This document shows, piece by piece, positions 2,019-31,637 of a stretch of 32,000 nt of DNA. This DNA comes from Xanthomonas campestris pv. campestris str. ATCC 33913 (GTDB lineage Bacteria; Pseudomonadota; Gammaproteobacteria; Xanthomonadales; Xanthomonadaceae): assembly GCF_000007145.1 (NCBI RefSeq), contig NC_003902.1:4763426-4795425 (forward strand). Reading direction: 5' to 3'. A program made the translations under genes and the position numbers. Numbering within the stretch: position 1 is the stretch's first letter; the number at the start of each line of letters is the position of its first letter. Below the pieces are notes generated by a model, which was given only the letters and a program-made list of their open reading frames with translations, ran no database searches and was not told where the DNA came from.

Positions 2019-2294
2019 ATGTCCAAACGCGTCACCGATGAAACACAGTGTTGATTCACGGATTAAATCGGCCCTATTTAAATTTGTGATTGCGGACGAA
2101 ACCAGTCGCCCCGTCGTTCGATGAACTGGTTATGTTGCGCTGCACGCAGTGACGCGTGCATTGTGGCTGTCAGCACGCTCAGTAAAAGCGCTGAAGAGTG
2201 CCATCCGCCACTGCCGCTACGCTGTAGGCGCTGAGTCCGATTCACCGCTGTAGCACTGCGGCATACATGGCCAGCATGAGAAATCGCGGGCAAT

Positions 2295-2330
2295 AAAAAG
2301 CCCCGCAGACCAGGGGGAGGTCGGCGGGGC
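2295..2330 (-). terminator. Rho-independent terminator (3' hairpin of the sX13-type sRNA)
   Basis: A 12-bp GC-rich stem with one C/T mismatch (GCCCCGCCGACC/GGTCTGCGGGGC) and a 7-nt loop, followed immediately by a T5 run on the minus strand. Confidence 0.8.
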
Positions 2331-2415
2331 CAGGGAACGGAAACTTGGGGAGGAGTTTCCGCTCCGAGATCTGCTCCAGGGGATGGGAGAGATCTGCCGA
2401 CAGGCGTTGCGCCCG
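2295..2415 (-). ncRNA. sX13: sX13-type small RNA (three hairpins with CCCC/CCCCC loops plus an intrinsic terminator)
   Basis: On the minus strand, hairpin 1 is AGATCTCTCC-CATCCCCT-GGAGCAGATCT (2367-2397). Hairpin 2 is GGAAACT-CCTCCCCA-AGTTTCC (2339-2360). Hairpin 3 is GCCCCGCCGACC-TCCCCCT-GGTCTGCGGGGC (2300-2330), followed by TTTTT (2295-2299). A -10-like TATATC lies at 2422-2427 on the minus strand. The 5' end is estimated only. Confidence 0.7.
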
Positions 2416-2568: not shown

Positions 2569-5352
2569 TCAATGCGCCTCGTCCCAGTTATCGCCCACGC
2601 CCGAATCGACCACCAGCGGCACGCGCAGGCTGGCGGCCGCAGACATGCGCGCGGTGACCTCGGCCAGCAGCGTGTCGACGAAGTCGGCGTCGGCCTCGAA
2701 CACCAGTTCGTCGTGCACCTGCAGGATCATCAGGGCGCGCTGCGCGTGATCGGCAATCCAGCCATCCACGCTGACCATGGCGCGCTTGATGATGTCGGCG
2801 GCGGTGCCCTGCATCGGCGCGTTGATGGCCGCGCGCTCGGCGCCGGCGCGTTGGCCCTGGCTGCCGGCGTTGATGAAGTCCAGATACAGCCGGCGGCCGA
2901 ACACGGTTTCCACGTAGCCCTTGTCGCGGGCCTGCTGCCGGGTGGTTTCCATGAAGTCACGCACGCCCGGGTAACGGCTGAAGTACAGCGCGATGTAGTC
3001 CTGCGCCTCGCCACGGCCGATGCCGAGCTGGCGGGCCAGGCCGAACGCACTCATGCCGTACATCAGGCCGAAGTTGATCGCCTTGGCGGCGCGGCGCTCA
3101 TCCCCGCTGACCGTATCGATGGTGCGGCCGAACACTTCGGCGGCGGTGGCACGGTGCACGTCGGCGCCGGATTCGAATGCGCCGACCAGGCCGGGGTCGC
3201 CGGACAGGTGGGCCATGATGCGCAGCTCGATCTGCGAGTAGTCGCAGGCGATCAGCTTGCGTCCGGCCGGGGCGACAAAGGCGCGGCGGATGCGGCGGCC
3301 GTCTTCGGTGCGGATCGGGATGTTCTGCAGGTTGGGGTCGGACGAAGACAACCGCCCGGTGGCCGCGCCGGCCTGGTGGTAGCTGGTGTGCACGCGCCCG
3401 GACTGCGGGTGGATCATCTCCGGCAGCTTGTCGGTGTAGGTGCTGCGCAGTTTGGCCAGGCTGCGGTAGTCCAGGATCACCCGCGGCAGCTCGTGCTGGT
3501 CGGCGATGGCTTCCAGGGCTTCTTCGTTGGTCGAGGGCTGGCCCTTGGGCGTCTTGACCACGGCGGGCAGCTTGAGCTCGTCGAACAGCAGCGCCTGCAG
3601 CTGTTTGGGCGAGTCCAGGTTGAAGGTGCGCCCGGCCAGTTCGGTGGCCTTCTGCTGGGCGGCGAGCATGCGCTTGGACAGGTCCGCGCTCTGGCGGCGC
3701 AGCTCGGCTGCGTCCACGCACACGCCGTTGGCCTCGATGCGCTCCAGCACGCCCACCAGCGGCATTTCGATGTCGCGGTAGACACTCTCCAGCGCCGGCT
3801 CGGCGGCCAGGCGCTTGCCCAGCACCTGGTGCAGGCGCAGGGTGATGTCGGCGTCTTCGGCGGCGTAGCGGGTGGCGTCTTCCAGGCTGACCTGGGCGAA
3901 CTTGATCTGCTTGGCGCCCTTGCCGCAGATGTCTTCGTACTTGACGGTGTCGTAGCCCAGGTAACGCTTGGCCAGGCTGTCCATGTCGTGGCGGGCACTG
4001 CCGGAGTTGAGCACGAAGCTCTCCAGCAGGGTGTCGTCGGCGTAGCCGGCCAGGGCGATGCCGTGGCGGCGCATCACGTGCAGGTCGTACTTGCCGTGCT
4101 GGCCGAGCTTGCGCACCGCCGGGTCGGTCAGCAGCGGCGCCAGCTGCGCCAGCGCCTGCGTGCGGTCGAGCTGGGCCGGTGCGCCGGGGAAATCGTGGCC
4201 GAACGGCAGGTAGGCGGCCTGGCCGGGCTCGGCGGCGACGCTGAGGCCGATCAGGTTGGCCTGCAGCGCGTCCAGGCTGTCGGTTTCGGTATCGAAGGCG
4301 AACTGCCCGGCCGCGCGCAGCCGCGCGATCCAGCTGTCGAGCTGCGCCTGGGTGAGGATGGTCTCGTACTGGCCGGGCGCCGACAGCGCCGGGTCCAGCT
4401 CCACCGGAGCGGCAGCCGGCGCCGACACGAAGCCGGTGCCGCGTGCGCGGCCAGGCTCGGTGCGCGCCACCGCCATCGGTGCGGTCAGCCCGCCGGCCTC
4501 GGCGGCGGCGCCGCCGAGTTCGCGCAGCGCCTGGGTGAAGCCGTAGCGCGCGTACAGCACCGCCAGCGCTTCGGCGTTGGGTTCGCGCAGGTCCAGCGCG
4601 CGCGGACCGCTGGCCAGCACCACGTCGGTCTTGATGGTGACCAGCTCGCGATTGAGCGGCAGCCGCGGCAAGGCGGCGCGCAGGTTCTCGCCGATCTTGC
4701 CCTTGATCTTGTCGGCATTGGCGATCACGCCGTCGAGCGAGTCGTATTCGGCCAGCCATTTGGCGGCGGTCTTGGGGCCGCACTTTTCCACGCCGGGCAC
4801 GTTGTCGACGGTGTCGCCCATCAGCGCCAGCAGGTCGACGATCTGGTTCGGGCGCACGCCGAATTTGGCGATCACCGCCTCGTCCGAATCCATGCGGCTG
4901 CCGCTCATGGTGTTGACCAGTTCCACGCCCGGGCGCACCAGCTGCGCGAAGTCCTTGTCGCCGGTGGAGATGGTGACGGCCAAGCCGTCGCTGGCGCCTT
5001 GCAGCGCCAGCGTGCCGATCACATCGTCCGCTTCCACACCGTCGATGCGCAGGATGTCGATGCCCAGCGCATGCACGATGTCGCACATCGGCTGCACCTG
5101 TGCACGCAGGTCGTCGGGCATCGACGGGCGATTGGCCTTGTAGTCGGCATACAAGTCATCACGAAATGTCTTGCCGGGCGCATCCACCACGAACGCCACA
5201 TAGGCCGGGCGTTCCTTCAAGGTGGCGCGCAGCATGTTGACCACGCCGAACAACGCACCGGTGGGCTCGCCCTGGGCATTGGTCAGCGGCGGAAGCGCGT
5301 GGAACGCGCGATACAGGTAACTGGACCCGTCGATCAGGACTAATCTGCTCAT
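2569..5352 (-). CDS. polA: DNA polymerase I
   Basis: 927 aa. It has a 5'-3' exonuclease N-terminus (MSRLVLIDGSSYLYRAFHALPPLTN), a 3'-5' exo block (FAFDTETDSLD) and polymerase motifs (LIACDYSQIELRIMAHLSGD, RRAAKAINFGLMYGMSAFGL, QVHDELVFE). Confidence 0.99.
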   Translation of the reverse strand: MSRLVLIDGSSYLYRAFHALPPLTNAQGEPTGALFGVVNMLRATLKERPAYVAFVVDAPGKTFRDDLYADYKANRPSMPDDLRAQVQPMCDIVHALGIDILRIDGVEADDVIGTLALQGASDGLAVTISTGDKDFAQLVRPGVELVNTMSGSRMDSDEAVIAKFGVRPNQIVDLLALMGDTVDNVPGVEKCGPKTAAKWLAEYDSLDGVIANADKIKGKIGENLRAALPRLPLNRELVTIKTDVVLASGPRALDLREPNAEALAVLYARYGFTQALRELGGAAAEAGGLTAPMAVARTEPGRARGTGFVSAPAAAPVELDPALSAPGQYETILTQAQLDSWIARLRAAGQFAFDTETDSLDALQANLIGLSVAAEPGQAAYLPFGHDFPGAPAQLDRTQALAQLAPLLTDPAVRKLGQHGKYDLHVMRRHGIALAGYADDTLLESFVLNSGSARHDMDSLAKRYLGYDTVKYEDICGKGAKQIKFAQVSLEDATRYAAEDADITLRLHQVLGKRLAAEPALESVYRDIEMPLVGVLERIEANGVCVDAAELRRQSADLSKRMLAAQQKATELAGRTFNLDSPKQLQALLFDELKLPAVVKTPKGQPSTNEEALEAIADQHELPRVILDYRSLAKLRSTYTDKLPEMIHPQSGRVHTSYHQAGAATGRLSSSDPNLQNIPIRTEDGRRIRRAFVAPAGRKLIACDYSQIELRIMAHLSGDPGLVGAFESGADVHRATAAEVFGRTIDTVSGDERRAAKAINFGLMYGMSAFGLARQLGIGRGEAQDYIALYFSRYPGVRDFMETTRQQARDKGYVETVFGRRLYLDFINAGSQGQRAGAERAAINAPMQGTAADIIKRAMVSVDGWIADHAQRALMILQVHDELVFEADADFVDTLLAEVTARMSAAASLRVPLVVDSGVGDNWDEAH

Positions 5353-5429: not shown

Positions 5430-5711
5430 ATGAAGAGAGCAAGTCTTTTGCTGTTGCCGCTGCTGCTGCTCGGCGGCTGCGCCACCACCGGTGGCGGCGG
5501 CGATGTGCCGGCCAACGCGGATGTCACCAGCAAGACCATGGGCAACGGCGACAAGGTCGACGAATACCGCGTCAACGGGCAGCTGGAAATGGTGCGCGTG
5601 ACCCCCGCACGTGGCGCGCCGTACTTCCTGTACGACCGTGACCATGACGGCCATACCGACGCCGAGCGTGACAAGGTCAACAAGACGTATTGGCAGTTGT
5701 ATAGCTGGTGA
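5430..5711 (+). CDS. small lipoprotein (93 aa), possibly DUF2782-like
   Basis: It has a signal peptide with a lipobox (MKRASLLLLPLLLLGG|C) and is divergent from polA. The DUF2782 assignment rests only on my memory that small proteins of this type sit next to polA in gammaproteobacteria. Confidence 0.8.
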   Translation: MKRASLLLLPLLLLGGCATTGGGGDVPANADVTSKTMGNGDKVDEYRVNGQLEMVRVTPARGAPYFLYDRDHDGHTDAERDKVNKTYWQLYSW

Positions 5712-5750
5712 TTGGGGAGCGGTGATTGGGAATTCGGGATTGGGGATTCG
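5710..5750. repeat. imperfect GATTGGG/GGGGATT heptamer microsatellite
   Basis: gattggggagcggtgattgggaattcgggattggggattcg starts inside the stop codon of the lipoprotein gene. It belongs to the same heptamer family as 31588-31637. Confidence 0.6.
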
Positions 5751-6816: not shown

Positions 6817-7135
6817 GGGCGCTCCTACAATGATCCGCATGCATCACGCTGCGCGTGCCGGTGAGCGCGCTGCTGCCGAGCTACCTCAGACGAATGACCA
6901 ACTGCACACACCTGCGTAGGAGCGCGCTTGCGCGCGATGAGCCTTCCCGGTAATGCCCATCGCGCCCAAGGGCGCTCCTACGGTGATCCGCACGCATCAC
7001 GCTGCGCATGCTGCTGAGCGCGGCTGTTGCCGAGTTACCTCAGGCGAATAACGAGCTGCACGCCCTGCGTAGGAGCGCGCTTGCGCGCGATGAGGCCTTC
7101 CCGGTAATGCCCATCGCGCCCAAGGGCGCTCCTAC
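6817..7135. repeat. tandem duplication (2 x ~153 bp), each copy ending in a GTAG-type REP palindrome
   Basis: The units are about 6829-6981 and 6982-7135. The hairpins GTAGGAGCGCGCTTGCGCGCGATG...CATCGCGCCCAAGGGCGCTCCTAC lie at 6916-6981 and 7069-7135. An isolated right half-site GGGCGCTCCTAC lies at 6817-6828. Confidence 0.85.
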
Positions 7136-7203
7136 AAACGTTCTGCACGACTAGCCTGGACTCGATTGATCATCGCGCTCGCATCAACGCATCAACCCCG
7201 ATC

Positions 7204-11439: not shown

Positions 11440-11657
11440 GGTTTGGGATGCGAGGCTTCGCTCGGACCCTCATCCGCTCCTTCGGGGCACCTTCTCCCGA
11501 TGGGAGAAGGGAACAAAGCCCCTCTCCTACGGGAGAGGGGTTGGGGTGAGGGTACGGGGCGAAGCCACTACGAGTGGTGGGTAACACGAAAGCTTCGCTC
11601 GGACCCTCATCCGCCCCTTCGGGGCACCTTCTCCCGGCGGGAGAAGGGAACAACGCT
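11440..11657. repeat. cluster of composite hairpin (REP/MITE-like) modules between the FAD-protein stop and the uvrD start
   Basis: Two copies of module A (about 11449-11515 and 11593-11655) contain CCTTCTCCC-nnn-GGGAGAAGG and GCCCC-nnn-GGGGC hairpins plus GGATGAGGGT. One copy of module B (about 11519-11572) contains CCCCTCTCC-TACG-GGAGAGGGG and GGTGAGGGTACGGGGCGAAGCC. These are reverse complements of the modules in the 19118-20216 array. Confidence 0.85.
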
Positions 11658-11659
11658 CC

Positions 11660-13051
11660 TCACCGCCCAAGCAATACCAGCACATCCCGCGCAATCGCCG
11701 TTGCCTGCTCACGCAGTTCCGGTACCGCCAGGCTTTCCCAGAGCGAGCCGATGCGCAGGCTGCCGATCACCCGCAGGCGTGGATTGGGGCGGCCATCGGC
11801 ATCGAGCAGCGCGCTATTGGACGCGGTGTCCACGCCGATGCCATGCGGGCCGGGCGTGGCGATGCCCTGGCCCAGCAGCTGCTGCAGCAGGCCGTTGCGC
11901 ATGGCCTGCACGCGCATTTCCACGCCGGTGGCGTTGATCAGCGTCTGCACATCCAGCTGCAGCGCATGCCCGGCGCCGGCGCTGGCGCTCACCCGCACAC
12001 AGGCGCCGGCCTGGTACGCCACATCCAGCCGCGCGCGATGCAGTTGCAATTGCCCGCGCGCCTGCATTGCCTGCAGGTGCGCATGCACCGGCGCGGCGAT
12101 GCGGTGGCGGTGCACATCCCAATAGCGCACCACATGCCGCAAGAAGCGGCGCTGGTCGGCGGCCGACAGCGTCTGCCATAGCGCCTGGCTCAACGGGCGG
12201 ATGCGCTCCATCACGCTCTGCCAGGGCAGGCCCTGCGCGGCCGCGTCGCGCGCATGCCGGCGCAATGCGCGCATGCGCGCGCGCAGGGGCAGTGCCAGCA
12301 GCGGTTGCGGGTCGAACGGTGCCGGCGTGGCGTGTGCGTGCGGCAGCGGCAGCAAGCCGTGCCGCGAGACCACGTGCACCGCGCCGCGGTGCTGCTGCGC
12401 GGCCAGGGTGACCACGCTGTCGGCCATGCTCAACCCCGAGCCAATGATGCACACCGCCGCGTCCTGCGGGATCTGCGCCACTGAGGGCGTGTCCCAGGCT
12501 TCCACTCGCTGGCCGGGCGCCAGGCCGGCGGCGCCGCGCAATGGCAGCGGCCGCAATGCATTGCCCACCGCCAGGATCACGCTGGCAGCCTGCAGGTGCT
12601 GGCCGTCATCCAAATGCAGCAGCGCGCCTGCGGCGTTTGGCTGCAGGTCGCGTACGCGAGCGCTGCAGACAGTGAGTGTGGCGGGGCTGCGCGCGCAGGC
12701 CTCTTGCAACCGAGCACGCAGGTACGGGGCATATAGGCAGCGGCCCACGAACTGCTGCGGCAGTTGCGCCGCGTCCAGCGCCGGGCAGGCCTGCGTGGCC
12801 TGCAGGTAGGCGACAAAATCGCCTGGCAACTCGGCCAGCGCGCTCATCCGCGCGGCCGGCACATTGAGCAGATGCTCGGGCCGCGCCGTGGCGTAGGCCA
12901 CGCCTTCGCCCAATGCCGCGCTGGGCTCGATCATGACGATCTGCAGCGGCGCGGTGGCCTGGCGCAGCAGCTGCAACGCCACCAGCACGCCGGACGCGCC
13001 ACCACCGACGATGGCGATCGCTGCATCGCCGGGTACACGCTGTTCGTTCAT
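11660..13051 (-). CDS. FAD/NAD(P)-binding oxidoreductase-like protein (463 aa)
   Basis: The start MNEQRVPGDAAIAIVGGGASGVLVALQL carries a GxGxxG dinucleotide fold. There is a second nucleotide-binding-like block, VCIIGSGLSMADSVV. The track start at 13186 adds 45 Arg/Ser-rich residues with no support. Confidence 0.8.
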   Translation of the reverse strand: MNEQRVPGDAAIAIVGGGASGVLVALQLLRQATAPLQIVMIEPSAALGEGVAYATARPEHLLNVPAARMSALAELPGDFVAYLQATQACPALDAAQLPQQFVGRCLYAPYLRARLQEACARSPATLTVCSARVRDLQPNAAGALLHLDDGQHLQAASVILAVGNALRPLPLRGAAGLAPGQRVEAWDTPSVAQIPQDAAVCIIGSGLSMADSVVTLAAQQHRGAVHVVSRHGLLPLPHAHATPAPFDPQPLLALPLRARMRALRRHARDAAAQGLPWQSVMERIRPLSQALWQTLSAADQRRFLRHVVRYWDVHRHRIAAPVHAHLQAMQARGQLQLHRARLDVAYQAGACVRVSASAGAGHALQLDVQTLINATGVEMRVQAMRNGLLQQLLGQGIATPGPHGIGVDTASNSALLDADGRPNPRLRVIGSLRIGSLWESLAVPELREQATAIARDVLVLLGR

Positions 13052-13357
13052 GCCGCAATTGTAGGCGATGGCCGCGTCGGGCCCATGACCACGGGTGCGG
13101 CGGCAACCGACATGTGAGGTGCTGGATTCGCTGCGCGGCAGCTGACTGCCGGGTGATGTCCGCAGCCCCACGCGGTGGGACTGCACGCAGCACCCAGGCC
13201 GGTACCGGCCGGCGCCACGCTGTGGGTGCGCCGCGCTCTATCACCCGTGGCAGCAGCGTGCGTGCATGCACTACGCCAACGCTGTGCGAATCAGGCCACC
13301 ATGCTGCCCGACGCTTCAATGCCAGGCCTCACCGCGCGACAGCCATCCAGCCGCCCG

Positions 13358-18151: not shown

Positions 18152-19174
18152 ATGATCATCGACTGCCACGGCCACTACACCACCGCACCTGCTGCCCACG
18201 ATGCGTTCCGCAAGGCGCAGATCGCCCATCACGACGACCCGCAGCAACCGGCCCCGCAATACCCGCACATTTCCGACGACGCCCTGCGCGAGAGCATCGA
18301 ACAGCACCAATTGCGATTGCTGCGCGAGCGTGGCGCGGACATGACCATTTTTTCGCCACGCGCCAGCACCATGGCCCACCACATCGGCAACGAAGCGGTG
18401 AGCCAGGTCTGGACGCAGCGCTGCAATGACCTGATCGCGCGCGTGGTGCAGTTGTATCCGCACACCTTCATCGGTGTCTGCCAGCTGCCGCAGTCGCCGG
18501 GCGTTCCGATCAGCCACTCCATCGCCGAGCTGGAACGCTGCGTCAACGAACTAGGCTTTGTCGGCTGCAATCTCAATCCCGACCCGTCGGGCGGGCACTG
18601 GAACGGCGTACCGCTCACCGACCGTGCCTGGTACCCGTTCTTCGAGAAAATGGTGGAGCTGGACGTGCCGGCGATGGTGCATGTGTCCGGCAGCTGCAAT
18701 GCCAACTTCCACGCCACCGGTGCGCACTACCTCAACGCCGACACCACCGCCTTCATGCAGTTCCTGGAAGGCGATCTGTTCCGCGACTTCCCGAGCTTGC
18801 GCTTCATCATTCCGCATGGCGGCGGCGCGGTGCCTTACCACTGGGGGCGCTTTCGCGGGCTGGCCGACATGCTGGGCAAACCGCCGCTGGCCACGCATGT
18901 GATGCGCAATGTGTTCTTCGATACCTGCGTGTATCACCAGCCGGGCATCGACCTGCTGTTCGAAGTGATCGACATCGACAACATCCTGTTCGGCTCGGAA
19001 ATGGTGGGCGCGGTGCGCGGCATCGACCCGCAGACCGGGCATTACTTCGACGACACCAAGCGCTACATCGATGCGCTGACCATCTCCGATGCAGACAAGC
19101 GCAAGGTGTTCGAAGGCAACGCGCGGCGGGTCTACCCGCGCCTGGATGCGCAACTGCGTGCGCGTGGGCTGTAG
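18152..19174 (+). CDS. ligJ: 4-oxalomesaconate hydratase (amidohydrolase_2 family, LigJ type)
   Basis: 340 aa. MIIDCHGHYT, GFVGCNLNPDPSGG, PAMVHVSGS, IIPHGGGAVPY, NILFGSE and ISDADKRKVFEGNARRVY parallel the LigJ sequence as I remember it. Confidence 0.88.
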   Translation: MIIDCHGHYTTAPAAHDAFRKAQIAHHDDPQQPAPQYPHISDDALRESIEQHQLRLLRERGADMTIFSPRASTMAHHIGNEAVSQVWTQRCNDLIARVVQLYPHTFIGVCQLPQSPGVPISHSIAELERCVNELGFVGCNLNPDPSGGHWNGVPLTDRAWYPFFEKMVELDVPAMVHVSGSCNANFHATGAHYLNADTTAFMQFLEGDLFRDFPSLRFIIPHGGGAVPYHWGRFRGLADMLGKPPLATHVMRNVFFDTCVYHQPGIDLLFEVIDIDNILFGSEMVGAVRGIDPQTGHYFDDTKRYIDALTISDADKRKVFEGNARRVYPRLDAQLRARGL

Positions 19175-20216
19175 CGGTGTTCCCTTCTCCCATCGGGAGA
19201 AGGTGCCCCGCAGGGGCGGATGAGGGTACGTGCGAAGCCTCTGGCACTCCAACCACTGCGAGTGGCTTCGCCCCGTACCCTCACCCCTACCCCTTTCCCG
19301 CAGGAGAGGGGATGTAGTCCGCCGCGGTGTAGTGGCCCAGAACGCCAGGCGGGTCTACCCGCGTCTGGATGCGCAACTGCGTGCGCGTGGGCTGTCGCGG
19401 TGTTCCCTTCTCCCATCGGGAGAAGGTGCCCCGCAGGGGCGGATGAGGGTACGTGCGAAGCCTCTGGCACTCCAACCACTGCGAGCGGCTTCGCCCCGCA
19501 CCCTCACCCCTACCCCTCTCCCGCAGGAGAGGGGATGCAATCCGCCGCGGTGTAGTGGCCCAGAACGCCAGGCGGGTCTGCCCGCGTCTGGATGCGCAAC
19601 TGCGTGCGCGTGGGCTGTAGGTGTTCCCTTCTCCCATCGGGAGAAGGTGCCCCGCAGGGGCGGATGAGGGTACGTGCGAAGCCTCTGGCACTCCAGCCAC
19701 TGCGAATGGCTCCGCCCCGTACCCTCACCCCTACCCCTTTCCCGCAGGAGAGGGGATGTAGTCCGCCGCAGTGTAGTGGCCCAGAACGCCAGGCGGGTCT
19801 ACCCGCGCCTGGATGCGCAACTGCGTGCACGTGGGCTGTAGCGGTGTTCCCTTCTCCCATCGGGAGAAGGTGCCCCGCAGGGGCGGATGAGGGTACGTGC
19901 GAAGCCTCTGGCACTCCAGCCACTGCAAGTGGCTCCGCCCCGTACCCTCACCCCTCTCCCGCAGGAGAGGGGATGTAGTCCGCCGAGGTGTAGTGGCCCA
20001 GAACGCCAGGCGGGTCTGCCCGCGTCTGGATGCGCAACTGCGTGCGCGTGGGCTGTAGGTGTTCCCTTCTCCCATCGGGAGAAGGTGCCCCGCAGGGGCG
20101 GATGAGGGTACGTGCGAAGCCTCTGGCACTCCAGCCACTGCAAGTGGCTTCGCCCCGCACCCTCACCCCTCTCCCGCAGGAGAGGGGATGTAGTCCGCCG
20201 AGGCGTAGTGGCCCAG
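19118..20216. repeat. tandem array of five composite units (223, 223, 221, 217 and 215 bp); each unit is the ligJ 3' end plus hairpin module A plus hairpin module B
   Basis: Unit starts (AACGCsnGGCGGGTCT) are at 19118, 19341, 19564, 19785 and 20002, and the array ends after GTGGCCCAG at 20216. Unit 1 begins with the authentic last 57 bp of ligJ. Within unit 1 the hairpins are 19183-19203 (CCTTCTCCC/GGGAGAAGG), 19205-19217 (GCCCC/GGGGC), a long imperfect one pairing 19218-19239 with 19264-19285, and 19290-19311 (CCCCTTTCC/GGAGAGGGG). Confidence 0.92.
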
Positions 20217-20273
20217 GAAGTATGCGGATTTAAACCATTGTTGCGATCAAACCCCGCAACCCTCCACAAACGC

Positions 20274-20301
20274 AAAAACCCCGCCTCTCGGCGGGGTTTT
20301 T
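20274..20301. terminator. bidirectional Rho-independent terminator (ends the rpmB-rpmG transcript; also faces ligJ and the array)
   Basis: AAAAA-CCCCGCC-TCTC-GGCGGGG-TTTTT. The GC stem is perfect, with an A-run upstream and a T-run downstream. It lies 29 nt beyond the rpmG stop. Confidence 0.88.
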
Positions 20302-20329
20302 GTTGGAAGCAGATCACGTAATCGGTGGA

Positions 20330-20497
20330 TTACTTGATCTTGCCTTCCTTGTACATGACGTGCTTACGCACGACCGGGTCGTACTTCATCATTTCCATCT
20401 TCCCCGGAGTGTTTTTCTTGTTCTTATCCGTGGTGTAGAAGTGGCCGGTAGCGGCCGAGGAAATCATACGAATCTTGTCACGCTTGCCTTTTGCCAT
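20330..20497 (-). CDS. rpmG: 50S ribosomal protein L33
   Basis: It is absent from the track because it is under 60 aa. My translation is [59 protein letters not shown] lies upstream, 13 nt after the rpmB stop. Confidence 0.95.
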
Positions 20498-20510
20498 GAC
20501 TGCTTACTCC

Positions 20511-20747
20511 TCAGACCTTTTCGCCGCGCGCACGCAGCTCTTTCAGAACGGCATCAATCCCGTTCTTGTCGATGGTGCGCAACGCATGCGCGGAAACACG
20601 GAGCTTGACCCAGCGGTTTTCGCTGGCGACCCAGAAGCGGCGCTCGTGCAGGTTGGGCAGGAAACGACGACGGGTTCTGTTGTTTGCGTGGGAGACGTTG
20701 TTACCCGTCTGCACACGCTTGCCGGACACTTGGCATACGCGGGACAT
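20511..20747 (-). CDS. rpmB: 50S ribosomal protein L28
   Basis: 78 aa, [40 protein letters not shown]... A GAGGTG RBS lies upstream. Confidence 0.97.
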
Positions 20748-20916
20748 TGCGCACCTCGATAAAGTTTGGTGTCTTCCTTAGCCAGGAAAACGGCGGCCCC
20801 GACAGCGCTTGGCTGCCACGCAACGTTGGGAATCAAGTACTTACGCTGGGAGCAGGCCGGCACCCCATCGCGTTGGGTGCCGCCGTCCGGAGCGATCCGG
20901 GCACAGCGAGCCGCGC

Positions 20917-21088: not shown

Positions 21089-25547
<4,459 letters not shown>

Positions 25548-31587: not shown

Positions 31588-31637
31588 GGGATTGGGGATT
31601 GGGGATTGGGGATTGGGAAGCGGGAAGCGGGAAGCGG
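31588..31637. repeat. heptamer microsatellite (GGGGATT)4 then (GGGAAGC)3; G-quadruplex-capable on the plus strand
   Basis: gggattggggattggggattggggattgggaagcgggaagcgggaagcgg gives eight G3-4 tracts with 3-4-nt spacers. It starts 33 nt upstream of the rsmG ATG. Confidence 0.85.

Follow-up and report, generated by a model that had tools for sequence, protein, structure and literature searches.

A copy-number-variable tandem array behind ligJ of Xanthomonas campestris, probably amplified from a resident palindromic repeat and its flanks

How did ligJ of Xanthomonas campestris pv. campestris ATCC 33913 come to be followed by a series of repeats that begin with the gene's own last codons? In the 32,000-nt stretch of chromosome analysed here (hereafter, the window), five head-to-tail units of ~220 bp extend from the 3′ end of this gene, each made up of the sequence of the gene end, a compound palindromic core and a short tail. 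The array is real, and the original prediction that had described it from the sequence is supported in part. Very likely, it represents a lineage-specific tandem amplification with variable copy number, that is, a large variable-number tandem repeat (VNTR), in which a resident palindromic repeat was multiplied along with its flanks, among them ligJ's last 19 codons. The original prediction had also named the pattern to be expected of a plain local duplication, namely a core that is common elsewhere and a ligJ-derived part that is not, and this is the pattern we find.

Five units and the copied end of ligJ

Tandem Repeats Finder reports a period of 223 at 19118-20216, with 5.0 copies, 94% matches and a score of 1885, and alignment of the units returns the very lengths that had been predicted (Table 1). 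The units stand head to tail without unique spacers, as in a VNTR or tandem segmental amplification, and the unique spacer GAAGTATGCGGATTTAAACC comes directly after unit 5. Translated, the 57-bp unit heads read NARRVYPRLDAQLRARGL*, with the stop kept as TAG in units 1, 3, 4 and 5 and changed to TCG in unit 2, just as first described. Units 2-5 all open with AACGCCAGG, where genuine ligJ has AACGCGCGG. Two details of the first description need correction: the deletion that units 3 and 5 have in common, given there as 3 nt, is 2 nt long (CG), and a simple higher-order duplication of ~440 bp is ruled out by the mosaic similarity of the units, whose pairwise differences show no clean two-unit repeat. 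The Y to C change in the ligJ-derived part links units 3 and 5 and a 6-nt deletion (ACCCCT) links units 4 and 5; within the first 62 columns of the alignment, nothing separates units 3 and 5, but they differ at 10 positions beyond, where unit 4 is nearest to unit 5. Open reading frames (ORFs) of 111-172 aa cross the array on both strands, and public gene calls show no genes in the interval, which agrees with their earlier dismissal as phantom frames.

Table 1. Coordinates of the array, its parts and other features of the window
Feature	Position	Strand	Description and basis
Whole tandem array	19118-20216	+	5.0 units of ~220 bp; Tandem Repeats Finder and unit alignment
Unit 1	19118-19340	+	223 bp; ligJ's own tail 19118-19174, linker CGG, core 19178-19311, tail 19312-19340
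Unit 2	19341-19563	+	223 bp; ligJ-tail copy 19341-19397, stop changed to TCG; core 19401-19534
Unit 3	19564-19784	+	221 bp; ligJ-tail copy 19564-19620 (Y to C); 2-nt deletion past TAG; core 19622-19755
Unit 4	19785-20001	+	217 bp; ligJ-tail copy 19785-19841; core 19845-19972 with 6-nt deletion
Unit 5	20002-20216	+	215 bp; ligJ-tail copy 20002-20058 (Y to C); core 20060-20187; both deletions
Core element of unit 1	19178-19311	+	Folds; limits from comparison with the 11445-11664 copy; pair counts
Unit tail ATGTAGTCCGCCGCGGTGTAGTGGCCCAG	19312-19340	+	29-30 bp, specific to X. campestris; outside the dispersed element, absent from the spacer of other species
ligJ, 4-oxalomesaconate hydratase	18152-19174	+	Amidohydro_2; ORF, Pfam PF04909, names in public sources
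Second locus of the core family	11445-11664	-	One full and one partial copy; alignment with the array core
Two-way intrinsic terminator	20274-20301		A-run, CCCCGCC TCTC GGCGGGG, T-run; between array and rpmG; hairpin 20283-20297 plus T-run
rpmG, ribosomal protein L33	20333-20500	-	Convergent with ligJ; NCBIfam TIGR01023
rpmB, ribosomal protein L28	20511-20747	-	NCBIfam TIGR00009
sX13 small RNA	2294-2408	-	Rfam RF02232, 142 bits

Which copy of the gene end is the original? The ligJ ORF comprises 340 aa, public sources name its product 4-oxalomesaconate hydratase of X. campestris pv. campestris, and its last 57 bp are at the same time the start of unit 1. Among the matches listed, the orthologues that conserve the LigJ C-terminus NARRVYPRLDAQL[K/R]ARGL* include those of Stenotrophomonas, Dyella, the SAR92 clade and Caulobacter, and this C-terminus is unchanged in all Xanthomonas alleles examined except that of X. 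populi, which ends in V. The 57 bp are therefore native to ligJ, and units 2-5 carry copies, which upholds the claim that the array has duplicated the 3′ end of the gene. Nucleotide diversity (π) across 18 units from four strains amounts to 0.061 for the ligJ-derived part and to 0.061 for the non-coding tail, so the copies are not under coding constraint; the LigJ protein end itself is intact in all strains examined. From unit 2 onward, the units read AACGCCAGGCGG where ligJ has AACGCGCGGCGG (window 19341-19352 and equivalents), and both changes are synonymous. The GCCAGG of these later units is also the native ligJ sequence of X. populi (L325, near 3468).

The 29-30 bp that close each unit had been taken for a more decayed extension of the same gene copy. 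Aligned in register with ligJ, they match at 14/30 positions, a score also attained by 2.7% of 30-mers drawn at random from the window (p about 0.03), and the proposal would need identity to jump from 47% to 94% at one point; we do not retain it. We also considered, and rejected, a remnant of a lost downstream amidohydrolase gene: compared by eye with such a gene in another member of the Lysobacteraceae (L094), the tail shares only ATGCGG. A 12-mer of the tail, GGTGTAGTGGCC (19326-19337), matches ligJ codons 7-10 exactly when read as its reverse complement (18170-18181; BLAST E 0.03), which is probably due to chance.

Copy number differs between strains at this one locus, as had been suspected. 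Among the ligJ-rpmG intervals of Xanthomonas genomes, which we gathered via exact-protein look-ups, seven complete X. campestris chromosomes hold the same five units (L081-L083, L085, L086, L088 and L089), the X. campestris sequences CP155982.1 (L087) and PRDO01000003.1 (L098) hold three, and CP156001.1 (L095), with a LigJ allele that NCBI annotates as coming from X. campestris pv. raphani, holds seven, compared with one element in other species. Draft assemblies, presumably built from short reads, fail at the array, as the original prediction anticipated: CM002562 (L090) has a run of N, JAYIWD010000027 (L096) ends inside unit 2, and HF570389.2 (L084) has N inside unit 3. An apparent 62-bp deletion in unit 3 of the latter contains N and was set aside as a probable assembly defect. 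Such gaps and contig ends are what one would expect if the array were an assembly artefact, yet the seven complete chromosomes agree on five units, and strains with three or seven have variants of their own. Nor does a CRISPR-like array fit, a comparison that the original prediction had already turned down: the units are contiguous, unique spacers are missing, and the ten flanking ORFs that were scanned, like the public gene calls, give no hint of a cas gene and comprise metabolic, ribosomal, regulatory and efflux functions. As far as public assemblies can tell, both explanations are refuted, and we give them next to no credence.

Beyond X. campestris, a single decayed or expanded element follows the ligJ stop in X. 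arboricola, the X. phaseoli/citri group, X. oryzae pv. leersiae, X. populi and a further Xanthomonas (L320), all of which have one ligJ tail and no 30-bp unit tail. In Xanthomonas sp. AM6 and other Lysobacteraceae, the element is absent, and ligJ is followed by a second amidohydrolase gene. This second Amidohydro_2 gene overlaps or abuts the ligJ stop in other Lysobacteraceae (L001-L005 and L094); X. campestris, X. arboricola, X. phaseoli, X. oryzae and X. populi lack it and have the element in its place. Since the element occupies the ligJ-rpmG site in several species, it is old there, and its amplification is specific to X. campestris: at the loci examined, the ligJ-derived part and the tail of the unit were seen only behind ligJ and only in this species. 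In three of the complete chromosomes (L081, L083 and L086), a gene for an IS3-family transposase (381 aa, rve domain; 2703-3847) lies between the gene for a PrpF-like 4-oxalomesaconate tautomerase and ligJ; this gene is not in the window.

How might such an array have arisen? An old resident compound palindromic repeat of ~134 bp would have stood between the ligJ stop and the rpmG terminator, as it does in several Xanthomonas. In an ancestor of X. campestris, one illegitimate duplication of a 223-bp segment, which started 57 bp inside ligJ, took in the element and stopped ~30 bp past it, would then have made a single new junction, with CCCAG directly followed by AACGCCAGG. Once two copies were present, unequal homologous recombination or replication slippage could have produced three, five or seven units, possibly favoured by replication stalling at the strong hairpins, while exchange would have mixed variants among units and led to concerted evolution and mosaic units. 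Unit 1 starts inside ligJ, and crossovers may thus hit the last codons of the gene; with near-identical copies there, the LigJ end would stay intact. In every strain examined, every unit other than the first has CA for GC at positions 6-7, a shared signature that fits one founding junction and hence a single origin. Units 2 and 3 of CP156001.1 are identical, and in unit 1 of CP155982.1 the start of genuine ligJ is combined with the 2-nt deletion (TAG, then GTG) that marks units 3 and 5 of the window. Identical adjacent units and mosaic variants, as read from the alignments, fit unequal exchange or gene conversion.

Several observations sit less easily with this scenario. No microhomology that would account for the founding duplication step is visible at the unit junction, and among the ligJ-rpmG intervals examined, none from X. 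campestris held just one unit and so showed the ancestral state. A BLAST search within the window for the source of the unit tail returned only the 12-mer inverted ligJ match and common GC-rich words. Finally, the core is half as diverse (π 0.032) as either of its flanks, which could mean constraint on the core and not neutrality. On balance, we regard tandem amplification as the best account and the array itself as most likely near neutral.

The core as a dispersed family of palindromic repeats

Aligned with the copy at 11445-11664, the core is delimited by approximately TGTTCCCTTCTCCC ... GGAGAGGGG and thus spans roughly 134 nt. It comprises hairpin 1 (CCTTCTCCC/GGGAGAAGG), hairpin 2 (GCCCC/GGGGC), a long stem (GGATGAGGGTACG..CGTACCCTCACCC) that encloses an inner one (GCGAAGCC/GGCTTCGC), and hairpin 3 (CCCCTTTCC/GGAGAGGGG). 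That the unit contains a nested palindrome, as first described, is borne out by folding: one whole unit reaches -130.4 kcal/mol as RNA (z = -7.3), and the core alone -88.7 kcal/mol as RNA (z = -7.6) and -47.6 kcal/mol as DNA (z about -8). At the second locus in the window, the copies are arranged 1.6 times head to tail with a spacing of 137 and start 3 nt past the TGA of an ORF at 11660-13186, which encodes a FAD-binding-like protein.

The same core recurs far beyond these two loci. In BLASTN searches of plasmid records, it matched 101 records; its first ~50 nt are common to 81 Rhizobium and 12 Shinella plasmid records, and a 508-kb replicon of X. sacchari carries it at 18 places. An exact-pattern scan with GGAGAAGGTGNCCCGNAGGNNCGGATGAGGG, taken from the 5′ module of the core, found matches in at least 119 metagenome contigs and in 97 IMG/VR contigs. 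The inverted partner CCCCTCATCC (≤2 mismatches, within 260 nt) accompanies 176 of the 227 distinct copies, and ~100 of ~230 distinct copies end with a CCCTCTCCC/GGGAGAGGG hairpin, at a median total length of ~146 nt; judged by these motifs, those family copies have the architecture of the array core itself. In X. sacchari CP010410.1 (~196.5-197.2 kb; L103 1361-2064), five head-to-tail copies (142 bp x 5.0) lie between the genes for pirin and cstA, which are transcribed divergently, and the unit there is free of any gene fragment. Further core-family arrays are found in L274 (167 bp x 2.9) and L139 (191 bp x 2.0). Since the core is arrayed elsewhere without a gene fragment, tandem reiteration is a habit of the core family.

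With regard to mobility, the original prediction had considered that the array might mark an unnamed mobile or recombinogenic element. What stands of this idea is that the ~134-bp core is dispersed; for the whole 223-bp unit this is not supported, as its ligJ-derived part was seen, among the loci examined, only behind ligJ. One could nevertheless picture the 223-bp unit as a composite mobile element, similar to a MITE (miniature inverted-repeat transposable element), that captured the 3′ end of ligJ, is bounded by terminal inverted repeats GCGGCGGGTCTAC / GTAGTCCGCCGC and inserted repeatedly beside itself. The RNA fold does pair ligJ-derived CGCGGCGGG.UCUAC with GUAGUCCGCCGCG of the tail, and GTAG-like motifs recall the heads of repetitive extragenic palindromic (REP) sequences (PMC2817692). 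However, the left "repeat" is conserved coding sequence in all orthologues examined, and the inverted match covers only ~11 nt of common GC-rich words, with CCGCCGC occurring dozens of times in the window. Moreover, no target-site duplication was seen, the ligJ-derived part and the tail were found only at the ligJ locus of X. campestris, and the units abut exactly, as in segmental duplication. With its weak terminal repeats and its single locus, the unit does not behave as a MITE, and we hold this explanation to be very improbable. Around the core alone, no duplication flanks the inspected copies, and the upstream stop codon lies at varying distances. REP-like terminal inverted repeats with GTAG heads were also tried as a description of the unit and rejected, the match being too weak. 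Around ligJ, neither the public gene calls nor the ten scanned ORFs include a transposase gene, although no search aimed at transposases was made.

Does the family have a name? A full-text literature search with stretches of the element's sequence brought up unrelated primers alone and no published name. A broader possibility, which we find quite doubtful, is that the core belongs to a very widespread structured element unmatched to any catalogued family, whose tandem arrays would then be selected and not neutral. This putative element of ~130-160 nt may combine CCTTCTCCC/GGGAGAAGG, G[C/G]CCC/GGG[G/C/T]C, GGATGAGGG, a centre that varies, CCCTCA[C/T]CC and a hairpin at the end; it may occur in Xanthomonas and other Lysobacteraceae, in Rhizobiales and in prophage regions, with pairing kept on one strand (49 G.T and no A.C). 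If true, the recurrent arrays (at X. campestris ligJ, at X. sacchari pirin-cstA, in L274 and in L139) could bar exonucleases, serve as scaffolds for protein binding or be recombination hot spots. The core family itself extends across Xanthomonas and Rhizobiales, and a census and structure test of it appears more valuable to us than more work on the ligJ array alone.

Transcription of the array and a possible role as RNA

A scan for promoters and terminators found neither a sigma-70-like promoter nor an intrinsic terminator inside 19118-20216. The two-way terminator between array and rpmG is the sole terminator-like site in 18900-20800 and also ends the convergent rpmB-rpmG operon. Because promoters and terminators are missing inside the array, ligJ transcripts would be expected to carry it, and they probably run through ~1.1 kb of structured RNA to 20274-20301 as a long 3′ untranslated region (UTR). 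REP hairpins and those of enterobacterial repetitive intergenic consensus (ERIC) sequences can slow 3′ exonucleases and alter mRNA stability. By analogy, the array might affect the stability of ligJ mRNA.

Taken further, this would make the array a functional RNA module, a multi-hairpin ligJ 3′ UTR that acts as an exonuclease block, a source of small RNA or an insulator between ligJ and rpmBG, with copy number tuning the effect. The absence of a terminator ahead of the array, and with it the probable transcription, is in keeping with such a role, as is the lower diversity of the core relative to its flanks. At each of its two loci in the window, the element also stands in sense orientation directly past a stop codon, and a coding-like ORF ends ≤60 nt upstream of 47 of the 227 distinct family members. 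However, the family-wide orientation bias is weak, with 71 copies in sense downstream of a gene end compared with 54 in antisense, as assigned by a crude gene caller, and the X. sacchari array lies between divergent genes and hence not in a 3′ UTR. In addition, related species manage with a single decayed copy.

A further argument for this module comes from base pairing. At the free pair of hairpin 2, the 227 distinct copies have G-C in 104 cases, C-G in 71 and G-T in 49, and 3 are unpaired; A-C and C-A do not occur, and the wobble therefore exists only on the ligJ sense strand. When 20 related, Xanthomonas-like copies are set against the structure of four helices, 87.6% of cells are paired, as compared to 50-63% with slid partners, and compensatory changes appear in hairpin 2 and the long stem (U-A/G-C, A-U/U-A), six pairs being changed on both sides; hairpin 3 is misregistered in some alignment rows, and its pair counts are unreliable. 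On the other side, the substitutions within the ligJ array are not compensatory, a conserved A.C mismatch in GGATGAGGG/CCCTCACCC better suits the opposite strand, and the same covariation would be expected of single-stranded DNA (ssDNA) hairpins that are read by a transposase. The family comparison, drawn from copies that are mutually related, thus supports a conserved single-strand structure, to which RNA and ssDNA would fit alike. Rfam 15, searched at gathering and permissive thresholds, holds no family that matches the array, and even the best scores over the array fall far short of threshold; the sole match that passes the gathering threshold is the sX13 RNA at 2294-2408. All in all, we consider a functional RNA module unlikely and prefer near-neutral tandem amplification. 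A sponge for RsmA/CsrA was also tried as a role and dropped: unit 1 has ~5 GGA per unit, which by a rough estimate is about what base composition predicts.

Further repeats in the window and comparison with known systems

Other repeats lie elsewhere in the window. Runs of a GGGGATT-type heptamer at 5707-5750 and 31588-31617 resemble a G-quadruplex-forming repeat that is reported to be enriched in Xanthomonas (PMC4692102). Tandem Repeats Finder further reports the hexamer TGTTGC, repeated ~11 times at 25084-25153.

Among systems described previously, ordered clusters of REPINs come closest to the ligJ array. In Pseudomonas fluorescens SBW25, 16 such clusters are reiterated in tandem "including the flanking sequences"; their units consist of flank 1 - REPIN - flank 2, and the largest cluster comprises four REPINs in just over 700 bp (Bertels and Rainey, PMC3116915). 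Clusters of GTAG/CGTC REPs have also been described as reiterated with flanking sequences (PMC3733652), so tandem reiteration of a palindromic repeat plus flanks has precedent. The ligJ array follows the same plan, in that flank 1, palindromic element and flank 2 are repeated head to tail at an extragenic site. Its core, however, does not qualify as a REPIN, as two inverted REPs and GT(A/G)G heads are missing, it has a gene's coding 3′ end for its flank 1, unlike the SBW25 clusters, and with 5-7 units in 1.1-1.5 kb it exceeds the biggest of them.

Similar reservations apply to the repeats known from X. campestris itself. The bacterial interspersed mosaic elements (BIMEs) and the REPs associated with RAYTs (REP-associated tyrosine transposases) of this species (GTAGGAGCGCGCTCGCGCGCGA; PMC2817692) resemble the core in being extragenic, palindromic, high-copy and clustered. 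They differ from it in sequence, and in contrast to their ~22 nt, the core has 134 nt, four helices and no GTAG head; moreover, BIMEs alternate in orientation, whereas the units of the array all point in the same direction. An X. campestris REP of the RAYT type (GTAGGAGCGCGCTTGCGCGCG) does occur in the window, in both orientations within a BIME-like 153-bp x 2.1 tandem at 6817-7137, and not in the array. ERIC sequences of enterobacteria, also called intergenic repeat units (IRU), share with the core a length of ~130 nt, a long imperfect palindrome and a location in transcribed intergenic regions, but no sequence relation, and their host range is different.

A possible relation to rhizobial repeats deserves mention. 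Rhizobial genomes carry dozens of structured intergenic repeats of unknown function, such as RIMEs (Rhizobium-specific intergenic mosaic elements), Sm-repeats and AB/C palindromes (PMC2573895), and the core's 5′ module (hairpin 1, hairpin 2 and GGATGAGGG) is abundant on plasmids of Rhizobium and Shinella. Membership of the core in one of these families is a candidate assignment and a lead only.

The whole array can also be set beside the minisatellite and VNTR loci used in multiple-locus VNTR analysis (MLVA) of Xanthomonas, with which it shares head-to-tail repeats and a copy number that varies from strain to strain. MLVA units mostly measure 6 to ~100 bp. The units behind ligJ differ from these in measuring 215-223 bp and in containing a dispersed element plus a gene fragment. 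With its 3 to 7 units, the array offers a ready large-unit VNTR marker for X. campestris typing and, at the same time, a trap for draft assemblies and for ORF callers. Set beside these systems, the ligJ array is a real yet fairly ordinary kind of local duplication, and a clear example of how a palindromic intergenic repeat can be amplified together with its flanks, taking along the last 19 codons of a gene and leaving that gene undamaged.

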